Part shown: positions 9,435-23,750 of the stretch, piece after piece
How the letters are laid out: each line of letters begins with the position of its first letter
Numbering within the stretch: position 1 is the stretch's first letter
Assembly: GCA_020353515.1 (NCBI GenBank)
Contig: CP070695.1
Span: 2,642,155-2,706,154, forward strand
Length of the DNA: 64,000 bases
Origin: Candidatus Heimdallarchaeota archaeon
GTDB taxonomy: Archaea > Asgardarchaeota > Heimdallarchaeia > Hodarchaeales > Hodarchaeaceae
Direction of reading: 5' to 3'
Position numbers and translations under genes: made by a program
The notes under the pieces: model-generated
Seen by the model: the letters and a program-made list of their open reading frames with translations, nothing else
Told to the model about the DNA's origin: nothing
The model's database searches: none

Positions 9435-10019
9435 TCACTTTACTACTTGCTGTTCACTTTTTTTCCATCGTCTATATTTCTCATTTGGAATATTTAAACA
9501 GTCTAAAACTTTCCCAGTAATGAAATTAAATAAATCTTGGATGTTTTGTGGTTTATGATAGAATCCTGGACTTAATGGGAGAATTATCGCACCATATGTG
9601 GCGAGTTTGTTTAAATTGTGGATGCAGGGGGGACTTAAAGGAGTTTCACGTATTCCTATGATCAAAGGTCGTCGCATCTTGAGCATTATATCAGCTGCCC
9701 GCGAAATAAGATTTTCAGTATTTGCATTGGCGATGTTACTAACTGTTTTTACTGTAGCTGGTATAACAACCATCCCATCTATCAATGTTGAGCTACTGGA
9801 AAGGGGTGCATCCATTTCTTTGCTATCATATACTCGAAAAGCTATTTCTTTGATTTTCGAAACGTCTATCCCTACTTCATCTTGTAGTACATATTCTGCC
9901 CATTCGCTCAAGATAACATGAGTCTCTATTCTGCTTTCTACTAAAGCTTGGAGTACCTCTATTCCATATTGGATTCCAGAAGCCCCTGTTAAAGCAACAA
10001 TTATACGCTTCGATTTCAC
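9435..10019 (-). CDS. ubiX: UbiX flavin prenyltransferase
   Basis: ALTGASG, LISRAAD, RETPL, PGFYHKP. Confidence 0.95.
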   Translation of the reverse strand: MKSKRIIVALTGASGIQYGIEVLQALVESRIETHVILSEWAEYVLQDEVGIDVSKIKEIAFRVYDSKEMDAPLSSSSTLIDGMVVIPATVKTVSNIANANTENLISRAADIMLKMRRPLIIGIRETPLSPPCIHNLNKLATYGAIILPLSPGFYHKPQNIQDLFNFITGKVLDCLNIPNEKYRRWKKSEQQVVK

Positions 10020-10101
10020 GAGATTTCACATCTATTGAGCGCTCTTAACCATCTCTTGTACTAGAAAGAATGAATAGCGGAAAAAGAAAGAATGGAAACT
10101 A

Positions 10102-10491
10102 TTATTCCACTTCAACTACTCCTGCACCAGCATCAATGATTACTTTTGATCCAGTTGTTATTTGACTGGTATCGATTTGATCTACACAGGGGATTTCCCC
10201 AATAATGCACCCAACAGCTACAATCGCTTCGCATTCTTGAAGGATTAGTGCCTTAGGTCCTTTTCCAGTCTTGGCCATTTGATAAATTACATAAGATCCG
10301 ACCGTTGACCCTTTACCTGTCGGAAACACCAGTATTTTATCGGTGGTGTCGACACCTTCTAATTCATGGCCTTTCTCGACTACTATTCCAGTCTCGGGGT
10401 CAACTCCGCCATAAAACGAGATACTATCTTTTGTCACTAGGGCTTCCCCTTCGGTCTTTCCTTGGTAAATTCGTCTACCTGTCAATTTCAT
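10102..10491 (-). CDS. Phosphomevalonate dehydratase small subunit (AcnX swivel, DUF126)
   Basis: ISFYGGVDPETG, GKGSTVGSY. Start placed at ATG 10491, overlapping the upstream stop (ATGA). Confidence 0.93.
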   Translation of the reverse strand: MKLTGRRIYQGKTEGEALVTKDSISFYGGVDPETGIVVEKGHELEGVDTTDKILVFPTGKGSTVGSYVIYQMAKTGKGPKALILQECEAIVAVGCIIGEIPCVDQIDTSQITTGSKVIIDAGAGVVEVE

Positions 10492-11669
10492 TTTAAGGCC
10501 TCCTCTATACATTCATCTACAGACATTAATTTCACTGAAAATTTATTCCTACCCGATCCATAATAACACATTTTAGCTGAATCGGATGCCAAGCCATGAA
10601 ATCGTCCTTTGATTGGAGCGACGACACAACATGTGTCTGCAGCAACTTTTGCTCCTGAATCTTCAATCATTTTTGTAAAACCCATACGATCAGCGATTTG
10701 TTTAGTAGGACGAGCCGTTGTGACCCATACCTCTTTTTGGGGATTTGTTTTTTTACCTTCTAATTGTTTAGCAATGTATTCTAATTCCGCTAGAGAGGCG
10801 TGTGGACATCCTAAGCTTATAAAATCAATCTCTGTATCTTCATCAAGATCAGCCATTGCACCTTTAAGATCATCTTCGTTTACTTCTATAGTCTCAGAAG
10901 GGATCGTTTCAACTCTATCAGGGGTAATGCCTTCCATATGGAATAATGCTACTCCACCATAAGTCGCATATGATGCACAGAATGATTTGAGTTCTTCAAC
11001 AGAAGCTTTTGGAATACCAGTGATATAACTAATCTTCTTTCCCAGACGATCACCTAAGACTTTACCTAATGCTCCAAATTGGAATGTTCCCTCAACTTTT
11101 GTTTTCACTTCAACCTTTACACTTGGCTGCCTGTTTTCATCAAGGTGAAAACCATATTCAGGTGTCTTTCCGACAAGAGCTGCACTGAGAGCGCTGGGGC
11201 CGCCTTCTCGGTTCGTTCTAGCACCTAAGACTGAGTTTGCATAGCAGACCGCGCTACTTTCAGACCAAGCAATGTGTTGACCATAATGAGGCAAGTTACC
11301 ATATAGGTAGGGAGTGCAACTGCAAGTAGTAATCACACCCATCTTTCCAAACGCTTCAACAACCCGGTGTTGGTTTTCTGCGAAATCTTCACTGATGGCT
11401 AATTTTTTCCATTCTTCAAGGTCCATACCCGCAGGATTGAGAGTGGTAAAAACTCTTACTTTGCCATCAACAGCCATATCAGCTAACCATTCTAGGCCAG
11501 GTTCGTTTAAGTTAGCATAACTTACACCTGCAATTTGGACAGATGTGATATCAATCATCCGCTTGGCACCATAAATATCCCCAAGCGTGACTAATATTTC
11601 CATAGCTTTTTGTGTGGCTTTTCCATACTTGCCTGCAGCCATATCTTGTTCTTCATTAGTTAGTTCCAT
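10488..11669 (-). CDS. Phosphomevalonate dehydratase large subunit (AcnX, DUF521)
   Basis: TTLNPAG, CSCTPY, WSESSAV.YANSV.GARTNREGG, GCPH, DTCCVV. Confidence 0.95.
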   Translation of the reverse strand: MELTNEEQDMAAGKYGKATQKAMEILVTLGDIYGAKRMIDITSVQIAGVSYANLNEPGLEWLADMAVDGKVRVFTTLNPAGMDLEEWKKLAISEDFAENQHRVVEAFGKMGVITTCSCTPYLYGNLPHYGQHIAWSESSAVCYANSVLGARTNREGGPSALSAALVGKTPEYGFHLDENRQPSVKVEVKTKVEGTFQFGALGKVLGDRLGKKISYITGIPKASVEELKSFCASYATYGGVALFHMEGITPDRVETIPSETIEVNEDDLKGAMADLDEDTEIDFISLGCPHASLAELEYIAKQLEGKKTNPQKEVWVTTARPTKQIADRMGFTKMIEDSGAKVAADTCCVVAPIKGRFHGLASDSAKMCYYGSGRNKFSVKLMSVDECIEEALK

Positions 11670-11686
11670 ACTTCATCTCCTCATTT

Positions 11687-12999
11687 TCACATATAATCTT
11701 TTAAATCAACTTCGGGAAATTCAGCCCGAGTAAAACTTTTCCCCTTTGTCACCAAAGGGGCAGTAAAATCAAAACCAATTTTATTTGTGATTTTCGTCCC
11801 TGGTTCTGCACTCGGGTCTAAGCTAGAACCTGGTTCCTTTCCCATGTCTACTAAGTCTCTTTCAGCCTGAAAACGAGTTGCCATTGACCATTCCACTTCT
11901 AAGGGGTTATAGATATCAATATCTTTATCGACAACAAATACATGTTTACAGCTTCTATGTCCAGCGAAGGCAGCACGTATAGCTTTCTTTCCATCTTCTT
12001 CGTTCTGTTTATCGATCCTCACTATGGCATGAAGCCATGAGGAACCACCAGGGTTTACATTTACATCTAAACATTTTACCCCTGCTTCATTCACAGACTT
12101 GAATATTGTGGGCTCTCGAGGCATCCCCATAAGGACCTTATGTTCTAAGGCACCTGGGACAAGAGCTTGCCATACTGGGTTTTTCCTATGAGTGACCGTT
12201 TTCACTTCAAAAACAGGTTCATCACGTGTGATATCATATGTTTCAGTAAGATCGATGAATGGCCCTTCTTCCGCACGATCTTTCATGAATACTTTTCCTT
12301 CGAGTACTACCTCACACCCCGCAGGAATTAAGAGATCAACTGAATGGGCTTTTGTCACCTCCGTTTTTGCAAGAGCATTAGCAATCTCTAATTCGTTGAT
12401 TCCCGTTTTTACAGATGTTGCAGCAGCAACAAGTATGTTGGGGGTGTTTCCGACGCAATAAGCTGCCTCTACTTCTCCTGTTCTTTCAAGAAACTTGTAG
12501 AAATCACGTCCTTTAATTATCCGTGTACTCATTCGACTTTCTGAAAATTGCATAGCCCGATGAAAATCAAGGTTTTGACCAAATTCAGGATCTTTGGTCA
12601 CAACAACAGCGGAAGAAATGTATCTACCACCGTCTCGTTCATTATGTTTTAATATTGGAAGTTTATCCAGATTAACTCCATCCATAACAACTTCTTGACA
12701 TGGCGCACCGCTGATTTCCTCGGGTTTCGATTGTCAATCGCTGCTGTCAGTTTAGGAATTAAATCTGCTGTAGTGATTTTAAAATAATCTGCAATGCTTT
12801 CCTTTGTACAAAAAACGTTACCTGAGACCTGAAAATCAGAATATCCTTTTACATTTTCAAATAAAAGGGGGGTTGGTTCTGCTGCCTTTAAGACTGCCGC
12901 TGCTTCTATATCTATGCTAACTTCTTTCTTTATGCTAGTAATTTTTCCACTTTTTTTAAGTTCATTTAGATATTCCCGAAAGTACATTTTATTTTCCAC
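11687..12999 (-). pseudogene. ubiD: UbiD-family anhydromevalonate-phosphate decarboxylase split by a -1 frameshift near 12724 (pseudogene, sequence error or recoding)
   Basis: The N-part (FREYL, PLLFENVKG) and C-part (EGPF, GSSLDPS) are in different frames. Adding one base at CGA-AAC-CCG restores ...NRKPEEISGAPCQEVV. Confidence 0.85.
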
Positions 13000-13014
13000 C
13001 TTCTATACTAGAGC

Positions 13015-13956
13015 TTATACTCCAATTAGAGTTTTCCATGCGGGATGTCCCGCGTCTTTTAATGCGTTGTATACTTTATCTTGAAGTTCTGATCCAGGGG
13101 TTAAAGCGATTATATTTCCTCCTCTTCCAGTTCCAGTTACTTTGGCTCCTAAAGCTCCGTTATCTCTTGCAAGCTTGACCATTTTATCCAAAACATCATT
13201 AGATACAGTGACCTTTTGAAGCAGTTCATGATTTGTGTTCATGAGTTTCCCCACTTGCTCTAATTCCATGTTTTCTAGTGCTTCTCGCCCTTCTTTAATT
13301 ACTTCTTGATATTCTTTAACTATCCCTTCAAACCACTCAGGGTTCTCCTCCTTCTTTTTCCGAACATCTCCAACAACAACTGCTGTATTAGCTGTCATTC
13401 CTGAGCTTGCAATCACTAATTCAATTGGTTTTTCTAGTTTTATTGTTTCTATTGTATTGGGGCCCCCCTTGAGATTTCGAATGAAATAAACTAATCCACC
13501 AAATGTTGAAGCAGTATTATCAATTCCACTAGGAGTACCATGATATCCCTTTTCACCTTCATAAGCAGCATTATTTATTTTCTCATTATCCCATCCTAGG
13601 TTAAATTCATCATTGATTGCTCTCGCAAGTGAAACACAGTTTGCTGCAGATGCTCCAACACCACTAGCACAAACAAGATCTCCACCGAATGTTATCTTCA
13701 GGGAGGTTCCTTCTAGGTTAACTCCCATAAACTCCAAAACATTTTTTATGGCTACTTTTTGCTCGTTAAACTTCTTTTCCTTATATCCAGGGATTTCTGG
13801 TCGGTTATCATTCAATTCATACCCTTTTCCTTCTTTAGATTCAACAACACATGTAGTAGTATCACCTATTGCGGATGCAAGCGCAGGTACACCATATACA
13901 ACAAAATGTTCTCCAAATAAAATGGTTTTTCCATAGCCAGATCCTTTACCAGCCAT
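13015..13956 (-). CDS. mvk: Mevalonate kinase
   Basis: GKTILFGEHFVVYG, SGVGASAA, HGTPSGIDN, GAKVTGTGRGG; AGGTGA SD before ATG 13956. Confidence 0.95.
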   Translation of the reverse strand: MAGKGSGYGKTILFGEHFVVYGVPALASAIGDTTTCVVESKEGKGYELNDNRPEIPGYKEKKFNEQKVAIKNVLEFMGVNLEGTSLKITFGGDLVCASGVGASAANCVSLARAINDEFNLGWDNEKINNAAYEGEKGYHGTPSGIDNTASTFGGLVYFIRNLKGGPNTIETIKLEKPIELVIASSGMTANTAVVVGDVRKKKEENPEWFEGIVKEYQEVIKEGREALENMELEQVGKLMNTNHELLQKVTVSNDVLDKMVKLARDNGALGAKVTGTGRGGNIIALTPGSELQDKVYNALKDAGHPAWKTLIGV

Positions 13957-14262
13957 TTTTATCACCTAATATTTTCTTCCATAAAATTCTCAAAAAACTG
14001 ATTACTTTTTATCAATTTGTAAGTGGAGCTAAAAAATACTTCTGACTGAAAGTAACGAAAAGAAACCCGTTACGTCATTTCCTGATACCCTTACACCCCT
14101 ATATTGAATTTTTATGGCTTACTGTTAATAATGCTTTTCAATAAATTCATAGATTTCTTAAAGGGATAATGTATTTTTACAATCTTGAAAAATTTCTCCT
14201 TTCCACTTATTATGGCCCATTTTGAGAAAGATTGATATAATTAAGAATTAATACTTATAGAT

Positions 14263-18606: not shown

Positions 18607-21084
18607 GTGGGCGCTATTATTTCAATTTTTGCCGAGAAACCTTCTATTGCGCGTGCTCTCGTTAAAGCCTTTTCTATTGTTTATAAACTGAAATTTAAAA
18701 GCCGAAAAGGCAAAACAAGATATAATTATGTCTTCGAAAGCACGATATCTAATCATGCAATCCGTTTCAAAATAGAAAAAGATGAATATCGCCTTCGTAA
18801 AGACGATCAGCTCCTCATATCTAGTGTTACTGGACATATCCTCAATTATGATTATCCTCCACCTTTTGATAAAGATACCAACTGGCATAATTCAGATCCT
18901 CTTAATATGATAGAGCTTGTACCGATAGAGATCCCAATTCAAAAGAACATGGTTTCGCATATTGAGGAGATAGGGACAGCTTCTGATGTGATTGTTATTG
19001 CTACTGATTGGGATGGTCATGGTGAATCTATCGGCCGTCAGATTCTTGAAATAGCTGCTAGAAGTAACAAGAAAATTCGTCACGGACGGATGCATTTTAC
19101 TAGTACTAATCCAAACTCCTTGAAAAAAGCGTTTGAAACTCAGACAGATCTCAACTGGGATTGGATTAAACAGGTTGATTCTCTTAGAAAACAAGATTTA
19201 CGAATGGGGTCATCAATAACTCGATTTTTAACTGTTGGAATCCAAAACCAAGGAATTAAAAATCGAATGATTTCATATGGTCCTTGTCAGACGAGTGTTT
19301 TATGGTTAATTACAAATAGGTTTCTTGAGAATAGCAACTTCACTCCTACGAAATTTTGGAAAGTTTCTGTTAAAATTGCCACATTAGAAGGGCCATTATT
19401 TCTGGATTGGAAAGAAAATCCTGTAAAAGAGGAAGCTATCGTTGACTCCTTAATAACCAAATTAAAGAAAGTTGCAGAAGGTATCATAACAGAATATAAT
19501 GAGGAGTCTGCATCTATCAAGCGTCCACTACCATTAGACACTGATACTCTTGAATCAGAGTGTGCCCAGTTCTTCAGAATTAGTCCAAAACAAGTAGCAG
19601 ATATTGCTGAAAGATTGTACAACAATGGTTATATTACCTATCCACGAACAGAGAGTTCATTCTACCTTGAAAAAGACCTTACTAGCTTAGCTGAAAAGTT
19701 TACATCTCATGATGAATTTGGTCTTGTAGCAAAAGAGTGTATTGCCTTAGAAGGTGTACTTAATCCCAGTAAAGGCAGATTTACAAAAGATCACGAGCCA
19801 ATCAAACCTGTAAAAGCAGCCACACAATCTGAAATCAAAAAATCCTTTAAAAAAACACCTGCGTTGGCCAATCAAGCGTGGAATATCTATTCTTATATTG
19901 TATGGAGATTTTTGGCTACTATTCACTCTGAAGCTACTGTTGTGAATCAATATATTATTCTTAATGCTGCACAAGAGGAATTCATTGCAAAAGGAAGAAA
20001 AATAATTGATCTAGGCTTTCTCAAATTTTATAAATTCAGAAGCTTAAAGGGAAAAGAATTACCTCGGTTTGAGAAGGGAAGTACTCACTTAATTGAAGCC
20101 TTTAAACATCAGGGATTTACAACTCCACCCCCTTTATGGAGTGAATCTCAGTTAATCCGAGAAATGGCAAGACTTAATCTTGGAACTGATGCCACACGAT
20201 CAACGCATATTGAAACAGTTCAGAAACGGATGTACACCATAAGTCAAGGACCACGGAGAATGCTAGTACCAACAGCTCTCGGAATGGCATTATATCAGAT
20301 ATTTACTCAAAATTCAGAAGACCTTATTTTACCTGAAATTCGAGGGAAAGTTGAATCTTGGACCATGCAAATTCGAGAACATGAAAAAACTCCCGAAGAT
20401 GTCGATAAACTTGTCATCGAATTGACAACTCGTGGTTTGCAGAGAATGAAAGCTAACCATGAGGAGATCTTCTCAACACTTGTTCAAAGTATCGAATTAA
20501 TGACTGGAATAGGGAAAATTTTGGGTCAATGCCCCGATTGTCAAGGAAATCTTATTCTCCATCAGGGAAAACGAGATTCACGATTCTTAAAGTGTTCTAA
20601 TCCTCTTTGTGAGGTGAGCCTTCCGCTCCCAAAAAAAGGTGAATTAACGGCAATATATAATGAGAACTGTCGCATTTGTAACGGAACTCCACTCCTGATC
20701 TCAACAAAATCTTATACTTGGATTATGTGTCCTATCTGCTGGACAAGAAAGGCCGAGGAAGATCGTCCATGGTTTTGTACTGATTGTAATAGAACAGATT
20801 GCCCTTTTTCAGGGTCATGGGAGGTTCCTTCTCCTGAACAACATCTTGGGAATTGTCCTGAATGCGGAGGAGACGTTCTTTTAAAATTTGACCAACAAAA
20901 CACCCAAGTAATATGTAGCAAATGTAACCGTACTTGGAAAGCACCAAATCTCCGTAAAGGAACAGCTATCACCCTTAGTGATCCCTGTGAGAAATGCGGA
21001 CGTCAAACCTTGTCTGTTATAAAAAGAGGAAAAAAGCCGTACCGTATATGTGTATTTTGTTCACTTTTCTTTTTCCAGGAATAG
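18607..21084 (+). CDS. Type IA DNA topoisomerase, TopoIII-like, with TOP3B-like Cys-rich C-terminus
   Basis: AEKPS, SVTGH, ATDWD, SYGPCQ, catalytic GYITYPRTES, GTDAT; multiple CxxC zinc ribbons. Confidence 0.95.
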   Translation: MGAIISIFAEKPSIARALVKAFSIVYKLKFKSRKGKTRYNYVFESTISNHAIRFKIEKDEYRLRKDDQLLISSVTGHILNYDYPPPFDKDTNWHNSDPLNMIELVPIEIPIQKNMVSHIEEIGTASDVIVIATDWDGHGESIGRQILEIAARSNKKIRHGRMHFTSTNPNSLKKAFETQTDLNWDWIKQVDSLRKQDLRMGSSITRFLTVGIQNQGIKNRMISYGPCQTSVLWLITNRFLENSNFTPTKFWKVSVKIATLEGPLFLDWKENPVKEEAIVDSLITKLKKVAEGIITEYNEESASIKRPLPLDTDTLESECAQFFRISPKQVADIAERLYNNGYITYPRTESSFYLEKDLTSLAEKFTSHDEFGLVAKECIALEGVLNPSKGRFTKDHEPIKPVKAATQSEIKKSFKKTPALANQAWNIYSYIVWRFLATIHSEATVVNQYIILNAAQEEFIAKGRKIIDLGFLKFYKFRSLKGKELPRFEKGSTHLIEAFKHQGFTTPPPLWSESQLIREMARLNLGTDATRSTHIETVQKRMYTISQGPRRMLVPTALGMALYQIFTQNSEDLILPEIRGKVESWTMQIREHEKTPEDVDKLVIELTTRGLQRMKANHEEIFSTLVQSIELMTGIGKILGQCPDCQGNLILHQGKRDSRFLKCSNPLCEVSLPLPKKGELTAIYNENCRICNGTPLLISTKSYTWIMCPICWTRKAEEDRPWFCTDCNRTDCPFSGSWEVPSPEQHLGNCPECGGDVLLKFDQQNTQVICSKCNRTWKAPNLRKGTAITLSDPCEKCGRQTLSVIKRGKKPYRICVFCSLFFFQE

Positions 21085-21296: not shown

Positions 21297-23750
21297 ATGA
21301 GCACAGAAAGGCTAGAGAAGGATCCTGCACCAGCAGCAATTAGATATCTTGTATTAACAAGCGCTTTCACATGTTTATTCACAGGATTATCCTTTGTTCT
21401 TGCTCGAGTAGGTACAAGTACTCAAGAAGATCAATTTTACCAAACTGCAATGACAGGATTCACTTTAGTTTTTGCTATGACGATGGTAGAGTGGTTTTTA
21501 CTTCGTCGTTCTCGAAGACTTATCGGGCCTTACGGTTTTGCTTTTGTACTTGAGATCATTAAGTATCTTCTATTCGGTTTTGCTACTGCTCAATATATTG
21601 AAGCGGTTCCAAGGGTATCCGCTTCTCCCTTTTTCCTTCACCAAATACTCTCATTAGGTATCGTTTTTCTACTTGCATTGACTAAAATTGCTCGTACTAG
21701 GATTGATCAACTCGCCCAAAAGGATATTAGCAGAAATGTCTTGAATCTTTTACCTACAGTACTTATTTTAGTTGTTTTTTTAGGAACATATGTCACAGAA
21801 ATAGTGGGACTAGGTACTCCAAGACAGCGTATTGAGTTTGAGGATTATGAAAAAAAGAATATTGACTGGAGCTTATTTCATACTCCAACTTGGGATGCGA
21901 CCTATCTCCTTGAGAATCTTCTTGACCAATTTACTGCGGGAATACAAAACCCCTACAAAGCTCTCTTTAATGTGTCAAACGAACTCGGTGCCGATCCAAC
22001 CTCACCACCCGCCTACTGGAGGGTTGGTAGTCTTGAAACATATGAATTGCACGATAAAGGAGAAGACCCCACAACAAGATGGACGTCCGTAGACCCATTG
22101 GGGTATCGGATACTGACTCCTAGTTCAGAAAGTGAAGGTACATCATATTCATCAGATATTGACCCGTCGGATAGAATAGCTGAATTTAAGGTCGAAGTTC
22201 CTCTAGACTATAGTACCGCGAGTGCAGATGTCAGTGTAAATCCAAATTTTCCAAATTATCTCCCTTCGCCTTGGAATGGCAAGAGTGGCGCGTATATAGA
22301 TGAGAACTCCTTCGTACTATATGACTCAAACGATAGGAGAATAAATACACTCACAACTCAAACAAAAGAAGTTTATCCAGGAGGATATAGCGATTCATTT
22401 GATGATCTATTAGGAATCCAAGCCTACATCACTACAGGCGAAAATTCTGCAAAAGAGGGGGTATTTGAATATACAATAAACTATAAAGATATAAGTGAGA
22501 CATTATATGATGCAGCACTGTTCTCAAAAACCAAAGATGATTATCAAAGCATTTTAGGATCATCAGACTGGATCGATATTCGAGATCTTTACTTACAGTA
22601 TCCTAATACTTCCTCAGAATTACCAAGTGATGCATATGTATATGGAACAGGTCCAGGAGTTACCCCAGATTATTATAGAGATTGGGCTCCTGAGGTGGTG
22701 GCAAGTACCATTGATCAATGTACTATTCCAGGTCAGAGTGTTTTTTCCCAAGCATATACAGAAATGCAGAGATTAGCCCCAAATTATTATATTAATACAA
22801 ACGAAGATGTAGCTGCGGAACTAGGAGGAACACTTCAATCTGATCCTGACCGTATTCCAGTACCTGGTTCAACTGGAGAATTTGAGCTTGCATTTGATTT
22901 TGATATGTGGTTAGGAGAGTACGCAACTATAGCTGCTATGACTGGAGAAGATGAGTATGATATGCCTCACCCTGAACCCTATGAAGATTATAATGAATGG
23001 TTCATAAATAATAAGCAAGGAACCGCACTTCACTTTGCTTCCCTTTTCGTGACTATGATGCGTTTACGGGGGATACCAAGTCGTGTAGTAATAGGTTATT
23101 TAGGAGGGTCGGAATCTACTGACAAAACAAAACTTGTAATTACAAATATGATGCTTCATGCTTGGGCTGAAGTACTGATACCCATCGAAGAGATTATTCC
23201 AGGACTCCCACCGACAATAGAACGACGAACTGAATGGGTCAGTTTTGATCCCCTTTTGAAATTCTTATCAGATATTCTTCAAACAGGCACTCCAATAGAC
23301 ATGCCAGTTATGTCAGAAGTATCAACTACCGTCTTAATTGGTTCCGATTATGATCACAGGGCTTTTGGACCCGCTACTGCCCCTATCGCGAATATTACTA
23401 CCACAGATGACTCTGATCAAACCTTAAACTTAGTACAAGACAATATTACCCTTTCTGCTCGTCTTATGATGGTCACTGGAGTGTCTACTTGGATGCCCTG
23501 GCAACCAGCCTGTGATTATCTTGGTACAAGAATGTCTTTTTATTGGAGTAACACTCGTACCTTTAGTGATGACTCACGCTATTTTATTGGTAATTCAACT
23601 ATTGATAGCGCTGGTTATGGCTCGGTTCAGTTTGACTATGATATTTTAGATTATGGTTCTCCAATTTGGTTTTTTGCACGAGTTGTTTTTAATCCAGGAG
23701 CTACTGATCAGCACATAGCAGGAGCTAGATCTCTTAGACACGAGATATAG
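21297..23750 (+). CDS. Membrane protein with transglutaminase-like domain (catalytic Cys absent)
   Basis: About 5 N-terminal TM helices, YWR, GTALHFAS...RLRGIPSRVVIGY, HAWAEV, WVSFDP. Confidence 0.85.
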   Translation: MSTERLEKDPAPAAIRYLVLTSAFTCLFTGLSFVLARVGTSTQEDQFYQTAMTGFTLVFAMTMVEWFLLRRSRRLIGPYGFAFVLEIIKYLLFGFATAQYIEAVPRVSASPFFLHQILSLGIVFLLALTKIARTRIDQLAQKDISRNVLNLLPTVLILVVFLGTYVTEIVGLGTPRQRIEFEDYEKKNIDWSLFHTPTWDATYLLENLLDQFTAGIQNPYKALFNVSNELGADPTSPPAYWRVGSLETYELHDKGEDPTTRWTSVDPLGYRILTPSSESEGTSYSSDIDPSDRIAEFKVEVPLDYSTASADVSVNPNFPNYLPSPWNGKSGAYIDENSFVLYDSNDRRINTLTTQTKEVYPGGYSDSFDDLLGIQAYITTGENSAKEGVFEYTINYKDISETLYDAALFSKTKDDYQSILGSSDWIDIRDLYLQYPNTSSELPSDAYVYGTGPGVTPDYYRDWAPEVVASTIDQCTIPGQSVFSQAYTEMQRLAPNYYINTNEDVAAELGGTLQSDPDRIPVPGSTGEFELAFDFDMWLGEYATIAAMTGEDEYDMPHPEPYEDYNEWFINNKQGTALHFASLFVTMMRLRGIPSRVVIGYLGGSESTDKTKLVITNMMLHAWAEVLIPIEEIIPGLPPTIERRTEWVSFDPLLKFLSDILQTGTPIDMPVMSEVSTTVLIGSDYDHRAFGPATAPIANITTTDDSDQTLNLVQDNITLSARLMMVTGVSTWMPWQPACDYLGTRMSFYWSNTRTFSDDSRYFIGNSTIDSAGYGSVQFDYDILDYGSPIWFFARVVFNPGATDQHIAGARSLRHEI

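Follow-up and report, generated by a model that had tools for sequence, protein, structure and literature searches.

Does the cysteine-rich type IA topoisomerase encoded by a Hodarchaeales genome represent a prokaryotic orthologue of eukaryotic TOP3B, or does it belong to an older lineage from which both eukaryotic paralogues descend? The gene lies in a 64,000-nucleotide stretch (hereafter the window) of contig CP070695.1, positions 2,642,155 to 2,706,154 of the forward strand, from a Candidatus Heimdallarchaeota archaeon (assembly GCA_020353515.1). An earlier note, made from the letters of the DNA, had taken its product for a TOP3B-type enzyme along the whole C-terminus and hence for a TOP3B orthologue.

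18607-21084, + strand: type IA topoisomerase (Top3 class) gene, 825 amino acids (aa), the sole PF01131 gene found in the genome

Our analyses indicate that the product is very probably a Hodarchaeales housekeeping topoisomerase III of the archaeal Top3 clade that carries a GPCQ-type motif and from which TOP3A and TOP3B descend through a single ancestor predating their duplication, and that it is not a TOP3B orthologue. The open reading frame (ORF) has a GTG start and is intact.

The phylogeny of the core places the enzyme outside both eukaryotic paralogues. Core trees were built from about 586 columns with the tail excluded and rooted on RVQ-type archaeal enzymes, and included a FastTree tree of 274 rows, IQ-TREE trees of 66 and 38 rows under LG, and a 38-row tree under LG+C20+F+G4 with posterior mean site frequencies (C20-PMSF, hereafter C20). 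The last was made without bacterial rows, P0198, P0238, the second Hodarchaeum paralogue, and partial or helicase-fused TOP3B rows. The taxon sets are small, branches are long, and most eukaryotic rows are unnamed. In all four trees TOP3A and TOP3B are monophyletic (100/100) with Hodarchaeales outside, and Hodarchaeales form a long-branched clade (100/100) that is sister to two virus-like proteins, P0134 and P0145 (99.6/100). Apart from the RVQ-type archaeal TopA stands a GPCQ-type group (91/96, 27 rows) that unites Hodarchaeales, Borrarchaeum (Sifarchaeia), Wukongarchaeum, family f21, a second Njord paralogue, Thermoprotei, and eukaryotes, with Methanosarcinales adjoining. Within it, the C20 tree puts Borrarchaeum beside eukaryotic TOP3A+TOP3B (94/91), followed by Wukong, and the position of Hodarchaeales is weakly supported (78/61). 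One further eukaryotic Top3, P0198 (KAL0245039.1, Eukaryota sp. GEM-RC1), with a TOPRIM signature resembling the archaeal one and a long zinc tail, forms a long branch just outside TOP3A+TOP3B in the FastTree tree; it could be a divergent TOP3A or a transfer.

For the locus to hold a true prokaryotic TOP3B, an RNA topoisomerase, either the TOP3A/TOP3B split would be older than eukaryotes or a proto-eukaryotic TOP3B would have been transferred into Hodarchaeales, and gene transfer between these two parties has been argued for other genes (PMC12395588). Similarity searches lean the same way. Outside Hodarchaeales the top sequence matches are TOP3B, and the best match in the PDB, by sequence and by structure, is also TOP3B: phmmer gives human TOP3B 9cah 226 bits, aligned to aa 734, versus 215 bits for TOP3A and at most 117 bits for bacterial and Saccharolobus enzymes, and an AlphaFold core model (predicted local distance difference test, pLDDT, 88) has TOP3B and TOP3A as its top Foldseek matches. 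However, this PDB ranking is biased to TOP3B, as the only solved TOP3A chain among the matches, 4cgy, is of the short-tail human type, and the approximately unbiased (AU) test rejects joining Hodarchaeales to TOP3B on the core (p = 4e-5 under C20, 0.004 under LG), on the core with the virus-like pair included (p = 8e-4, C20), and on the tail separately (p = 0.007). The Hodarchaeales enzyme also lacks the eukaryotic W-L/T-D-C-D TOPRIM signature, the CxxD form of the second zinc site, the GTDAS motif, an arginine-rich end, and any match of its tail to PF23546, the Pfam TOP3B ribbon model, even at E<=10. As for the arginine-rich end, at least three RG near the C-terminus occur in 1 of 20 Hodarchaeales, and such an arginine-rich or RGG end varies among sampled TOP3B too (7/28). 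The RMI1/TDRD3 N-terminal domain, PF08585, had no match in the genome, which is 96% complete, although a divergent partner could escape the model. TOP3B orthology is largely refuted, and we consider it extremely improbable. Nor do Hodarchaeales form a clade with TOP3A, a grouping that received p = 0.04 in the AU test under LG.

Three observations weigh against our conclusion. With the two virus-like relatives included, the AU test under LG did not quite reject a TOP3B clade (p = 0.06). At 11 columns diagnostic for TOP3A versus TOP3B, Hodarchaeales agree with TOP3B at 6 and with TOP3A at 2; these B-like states look ancestral, because the unrelated Iainarchaeota give 5 B and 2 A. Finally, a histidine, His138, replaces the third glutamate of the acidic triad, a residue described as strictly conserved (PMC7823277), and is taken up with the active site below.

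The resemblance to TOP3B is most evident in the tail, where 19 cysteines at aa 642-818 form five zinc sites.

20530-20739, + strand: tail unit 1, zinc ribbon 1 (C642/645/663/668) and zinc site 2 (C688/691/708/711), from alignment and tail model
20776-20802, + strand: middle three-Cys zinc site (C724/727/732), as in the TOP3B structure, from alignment and tail model
20854-21060, + strand: tail unit 2, zinc sites 4 (C750/753/770/773) and 5 (C794/797/815/818), from alignment

PF01396 matches ribbon 1 only (aa 640-677). From its alignment, we take unit 2 to be a duplicate of the double-ribbon unit of archaea; seven residues follow the last cysteine, with no RGG, GRF, or CCHC element downstream. 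All 19 cysteines align in order with eukaryotic TOP3B tails, and 16 of them never vary among 12 Hodarchaeales and 8 TOP3B sequences; hhalign joins the two tails with a probability of 98.0% (E = 1.7e-13, 178 columns). The AlphaFold model of the tail (pLDDT 86) superposes on residues 618-717 of 9cah with Z 10.2 and a root-mean-square deviation (rmsd) of 2.7 Å over 96 residues, well above the other rows, versus Z 5.3 over 41 residues for the E. coli TopA ribbons. Foldseek with the tail alone gave weak matches (TOP3B E 0.015, rmsd 2.8 Å over 101 columns), among which E. coli TopA had a lower E than TOP3B but an rmsd of about 20 Å. It gave no clear solved match to the distal half of the tail, whose two zinc sites are unresolved in 9cah.

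This homology is not specific to TOP3B. In a profile search of 1.84 billion representatives, many TOP3A-class proteins were found to carry the complete five-site tail, although most of these and the archaeal double-repeat set are classed by tree, motif, and Pfam only. The long-tail TOP3A proteins group with the named fungal Top3 P0084 (99.7/100), and one of them, P0149, also bears the GRF and CCHC fingers of TOP3A. Against the Hodarchaeales tail profile, long TOP3A tails score highest (160), followed by archaeal double-repeat tails (152), virus-like P0145 (133), Njordarchaeia (127), TOP3B (115), Methanosarcinales (112), Borrarchaeum (109), and bacterial tails (60). Zinc site 2 is CxxC in 19/19 Hodarchaeales and 25/25 TOP3A sequences but CxxD in 18/21 TOP3B sequences. 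Human-type short-tail TOP3A matches only the distal unit, with the last two zinc sites, so that the tail looks specific to TOP3B when the human enzymes serve as the reference.

Among archaea, the first double-ribbon unit alone ends most TopA enzymes; this unit plus the three-Cys site ends those of Baldr, Asgardarchaeum, Wukong, and family f14; and the full five-zinc form is found in Hodarchaeales, Njordarchaeia, Methanosarcinales (with a degenerate site 2), and virus-like P0145. The tail might accordingly be suspected to be a generic run of zinc ribbons on an ordinary archaeal TopA, resembling TOP3B by convergence or cysteine bias. The good scores of the Hodarchaeales tail against double-repeat archaeal tails and against single units (114-124), the PF01396 match to ribbon 1, and an LG AU test that tolerated grouping Hodarchaeales with RVQ-type TopA (families f4 and f22, other Heimdallarchaeia; p = 0.07) are all in keeping with such an origin. 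However, TOP3A and TOP3B tails match its order, spacing, and middle three-Cys site over about 184 columns, whereas bacterial tails align over only 67; the structural comparison favors TOP3B over E. coli TopA; and the core groups with eukaryotes in the GPCQ clade, the RVQ grouping being rejected under C20 (p = 0.008). In its strong form this explanation is refuted, and we judge it very unlikely; its weak form stands, namely, that archaeal repeat units make up the tail.

Thus, the earlier note was right that the tail is collinear with that of TOP3B and that the enzyme is Top3-like; the enzyme belongs to the archaeal clade nearest eukaryotic TOP3, apart from ordinary archaeal TopA. The “TOP3B-type” label of the note does not hold, since long TOP3A tails score higher, site 2 is CxxC, and the TOP3B ribbon model finds no match; the orthology built on that label falls with the trees and AU tests. 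Its proposal that the architecture is older than eukaryotes is most likely correct, because the tail is homologous to that of TOP3B beyond generic zf-C4 similarity. The architecture also occurs in several archaeal lineages. Most likely, it is ancestral to both eukaryotic paralogues, and a cysteine-rich tail is no hallmark of TOP3B but an archaeal inheritance common to TOP3A and TOP3B.

Family f23, Njordarchaeia by the name of P0128, combines an RVQ-type core with the complete five-zinc tail and also has a GPCQ-type paralogue that lacks a tail (L035, L041, L043, and L045 versus L060, L061, and L070); tail and core type are uncoupled here, which suggests tail gain, loss, or shuffling. Methanosarcinales have a type IA enzyme of 770-790 aa (L112-L146) with a GPCQ core, a similar tail layout, and a degenerate zinc site 2, which may be the second type IA enzyme noted in Methanomicrobia (PMC8185306). 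In the Top3 of Borrarchaeum (L032, L033, L034, L109-L111; 910-915 aa) the tail runs on with extra zf-C4 repeats, and one Borrarchaeum metagenome-assembled genome holds two Top3 copies. An Asgard TopA of family f13 (L055:1115-3793, - strand) has an intein-like insertion of about 190 aa at its GT(K/D) motif.

Which archaeal lineage stands closest to the eukaryotic enzymes bears on a refinement that is compatible with our conclusion: Hodarchaeales and their virus-like relatives could be the actual sister of TOP3A+TOP3B, with eukaryotic Top3 derived, full tail included, from the Hodarchaeales lineage. The AU test does not reject this arrangement on the core (p = 0.27 under C20, 0.41 under LG). A tail-only tree of 183 usable columns, in which TOP3A and TOP3B are joined (100/97), makes Hodarchaeales and P0145 the nearest sampled prokaryotic tails to eukaryotes (92/92), compared with those of Njord, Borrarchaeum, and Methanosarcinales, and the best prokaryotic matches to the TOP3B tail are again Hodarchaeales and P0145 (105 and 108, respectively). 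However, the best core tree places Borrarchaeum and then Wukong next to eukaryotes, and Hodarchaeales share only 12 of 23 eukaryote-shared core columns versus 15 for Borrarchaeum and 13 for Thermoprotei. Given also the long branch and the few tail columns, we regard the refinement as possible but doubtful.

The virus-like proteins P0145 and P0134 are the closest relatives outside Hodarchaeales and lie on virus- or mobile-element-like contigs. One locus, L171 (L171:10001-12556; its 161-kb contig is L172), is surrounded mostly by unannotated ORFs together with a 1,391-aa PolB with a faint Pol epsilon thumb match; the other, L173 (L173:10001-12265, with L174), is accompanied by TFIIB, PCNA, an ERCC4 nuclease, and TnpB. 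The five-zinc tail is complete in P0145, and alanine occupies the third triad position in both proteins.

The core itself has the domains and residues of a TOP3 enzyme.

18625-19101, + strand: TOPRIM domain, aa 7-165, with E10 and TOP3-specific K11 (domain match, alignment, PMC11743793)
19006-19026, + strand: DxD motif D134/D136, intact, with His138 as third acidic-triad residue (alignment)
19153-20403, + strand: topoisomerase IA core PF01131, aa 183-599 (domain match, AlphaFold model, Foldseek)
19273-19293, + strand: SYGPCQT motif of the GPCQ type, aa 223-229 (alignment)
19639-19653, + strand: catalytic Y345, R347, and structural-metal ligand E349, corresponding to TOP3B Y336, R338, and E340 (alignment)
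19789-19794, + strand: D395/H396, corresponding to TOP3B metal ligands D386/H387 (alignment)
20182-20196, + strand: GTDAT motif, aa 526-530, with D528, corresponding to TOP3B D511 (alignment)

In TOP3B, the catalytic metal is held by E9, D117, D119, and H387 and the structural metal by E340, D386, and D511, with Y336, R338, and K10 also named as active-site residues (PMC11743793). All ten counterparts (E10, D134, D136, H396, E349, D395, D528, Y345, R347, and K11) are kept in 20 aligned Hodarchaeales, except in one N-terminally truncated row. The combination of TOPRIM with a PF01131 core bearing the catalytic tyrosine and arginine is that of the TOP3 subfamily, and two marks of TOP3, a lysine after the first TOPRIM glutamate and a proline after the catalytic tyrosine (PMC10969213), are present as K11 and P346. 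The SYGPCQT and GTDAT motifs, the latter within the GTDAT..HIET stretch at aa 526-537, are Top3-like, as had been noted from the sequence: the GPCQ type is common to eukaryotic TOP3 and the Borrarchaeum, Thermoprotei, and Methanosarcinales enzymes, and the final threonine of GTDAT is shared with TOP3A and archaeal enzymes, whereas TOP3B has serine (GTDAS). The enzyme misses all NCBIfam equivalog cut-offs (best 356 versus 635 bits).

The altered TOPRIM motif, DWDGHGE, was likewise read correctly and lies at aa 134-140. The acidic triad is D-x-D-x-E elsewhere (D111/D113/E115 in E. coli; E121 at the third position in TOP3B). Among 72 Hodarchaeales matches, the third residue is histidine in 51 and glutamine in 16 (67/72 together), whereas it is glutamate in all other cellular groups of the 274-row alignment. 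Because His138 replaces the residue described as strictly conserved, the metal dependence of the Hodarchaeales enzyme may be unusual. In TOP3B, the third triad residue is not listed as binding metal directly (PMC11743793), and the gene is under purifying selection, with a rough dN/dS of 0.06-0.12 in core and tail alike; His138 would for these reasons be a lineage-specific variant of an active enzyme rather than the mark of a dead one. We rejected a pseudogene, since the catalytic residues and metal ligands are kept under purifying selection. His138 thus offers a natural variant at a supposedly invariant position of the triad.

By analogy with its family, the enzyme would bind single-stranded nucleic acid and cleave one strand through a 5'-phosphotyrosine on Y345, with a catalytic metal presumably held by E10/D134/D136/H396 and a second metal site by E349/D395/D528; a strand would then pass through the toroid before religation, without ATP. 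The five-zinc tail, arranged as double ribbon, three-Cys site, and double ribbon, likely adds nucleic acid binding beside the core, as the C-terminal domain of TOP3B is reported to bind nucleic acid. TOP3B and many TOP3A would have kept this ancestral tail, while animal-type TOP3A shortened it. Archaeal topoisomerase III is a good decatenase and poor relaxase whose loss disturbs chromosome segregation (PMC11894792, PMC8185306). Since the Hodarchaeales enzyme is the sole type IA enzyme in the genome, it probably serves as a housekeeping single-strand-passage decatenase; likely tasks are the resolution of hemicatenanes, precatenanes, recombination intermediates, hypernegative supercoils, or R-loops beside topoisomerase VI (Topo VI) and gyrase. 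RNA activity is plausible, yet it would be no proof of TOP3B identity, because in vitro RNA activity has been reported for type IA enzymes from all three domains of life, human TOP3A being among the exceptions; it has been attributed to flexibility rather than to a motif, and no sequence determinant is known.

The gene is chromosomal and vertically kept in Hodarchaeales. A PF01131 scan of the single-contig 4.94-Mb genome gave this one match only. Orthologues occur in 22 of 23 other Hodarchaeales genomes searched (43-88% identity), and the nearest homologues carry the labels Hodarchaeota, Hodarchaeales, or Hodarchaeum; the other Heimdallarchaeia searched have only a distant type IA enzyme of about 700-750 aa. 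Many Hodarchaeum genomes hold a second, distant, RVQ-type TopA paralogue (L083-L088) not found in the present genome. A divergent AK6-like kinase gene upstream and a transglutaminase-like gene downstream are kept as neighbors in both Hodarchaeales families, and no operon partner was seen at the locus, where these two are the neighbors. The downstream gene (21297-23750, + strand) encodes an 817-aa membrane-anchored transglutaminase-like protein and lies directly 3' of the topoisomerase gene in most Hodarchaeales loci, with no evident functional link. Contamination or eukaryotic DNA was rejected as a source, given the single contig, a genome-like GC content (37.6% versus 35.8% for the genome), and the conserved neighbors.

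Elsewhere, the genome encodes a Topo VI B-like protein and a member of the GyrA/ParC family; with the models used, topoisomerase IB gave no match and RecQ (PF16124, TIGR00614) nothing over cut-off. The Topo VI B-like match (G000:C1:4657139-4661141, outside the window) lies in a 2,312-aa open frame directly adjoining the GyrA/ParC-family gene, an unusual length that possibly reflects inteins or a fusion. Within the window, a UbiD-family-like gene (11687-12999, - strand) appears split into two ORFs, 116 and 332 aa long, that overlap in different frames, which suggests a frameshift or an assembly error; judging its identity by eye from the translations, we take it to belong to an archaeal modified mevalonate cluster (9435-13965).

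The Hodarchaeales enzyme provides a stand-alone prokaryotic protein with which to probe pre-duplication Top3, including its preference for DNA or RNA and its need for RMI1/TDRD3-type cofactors. It is conceivable, though we think it improbable, that Hodarchaeales and the related large virus-like elements keep the closest living full-length model of that ancestor, cofactor-free, with a complete five-zinc tail and a His-for-Glu TOPRIM. If this were true, and if the enzyme needed neither RMI1 nor TDRD3 to act on DNA as well as RNA, both the dual activity and the tail would be ancestral, and TOP3A would later have lost its RNA activity.

Compared with known systems, the closest precedent is phylogenetic. 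One clade of eukaryotic Top3 is related to the Top3 of the Heimdall clan, Sifarchaeia, and Wukongarchaeia (PMC12680538, Extended Data Fig. 4f), and the same source regards Top3 as a gene that was probably transferred at about the time of eukaryogenesis. We recovered this position independently, with Borrarchaeum, Wukongarchaeum, Hodarchaeales, and eukaryotes in one GPCQ-type group. That Asgard Top3 lies near eukaryotic Top3 is therefore already published; the shared five-zinc tail and the His/Gln triad variant are two details, along with the virus-like relatives, that do not appear in the passages of that source considered here, and a limited literature search found no paper on the tail or the triad variant.

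Eukaryotic TOP3B (9cah, 5gve) shares about 25% identity, all active-site residues and metal ligands, and a collinear five-zinc tail whose first three sites are superposable. Unlike TOP3B, however, the Hodarchaeales enzyme branches outside TOP3A+TOP3B, has CxxC at site 2, GTDAT, and His138, and has neither a PF23546 match nor an RGG tail, with no TDRD3-like partner found in the genome. Long-tail TOP3A (P0136, P0140, P0149, and P0151; human core PDB 4cgy) is like it in the five-zinc tail, CxxC at site 2, the top tail score, and GTDAT, but differs in having GRF or CCHC fingers, where Hodarchaeales have none, and in the residue after CQ of the GPCQ motif, which is T and not F in Hodarchaeales, whose genome also yielded no RMI1 or RecQ. 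From archaeal TopA and topoisomerase III (TIGR01057, PRK07220; Saccharolobus solfataricus Top3, 6k8n) it departs in its GPCQ/GTDA rather than RVQ/GTK motifs, longer tail, and sub-cut-off NCBIfam scores, while it has in common with them the core fold, the TOP3 lysine, the double zinc-ribbon unit, and an expected role as a decatenase.

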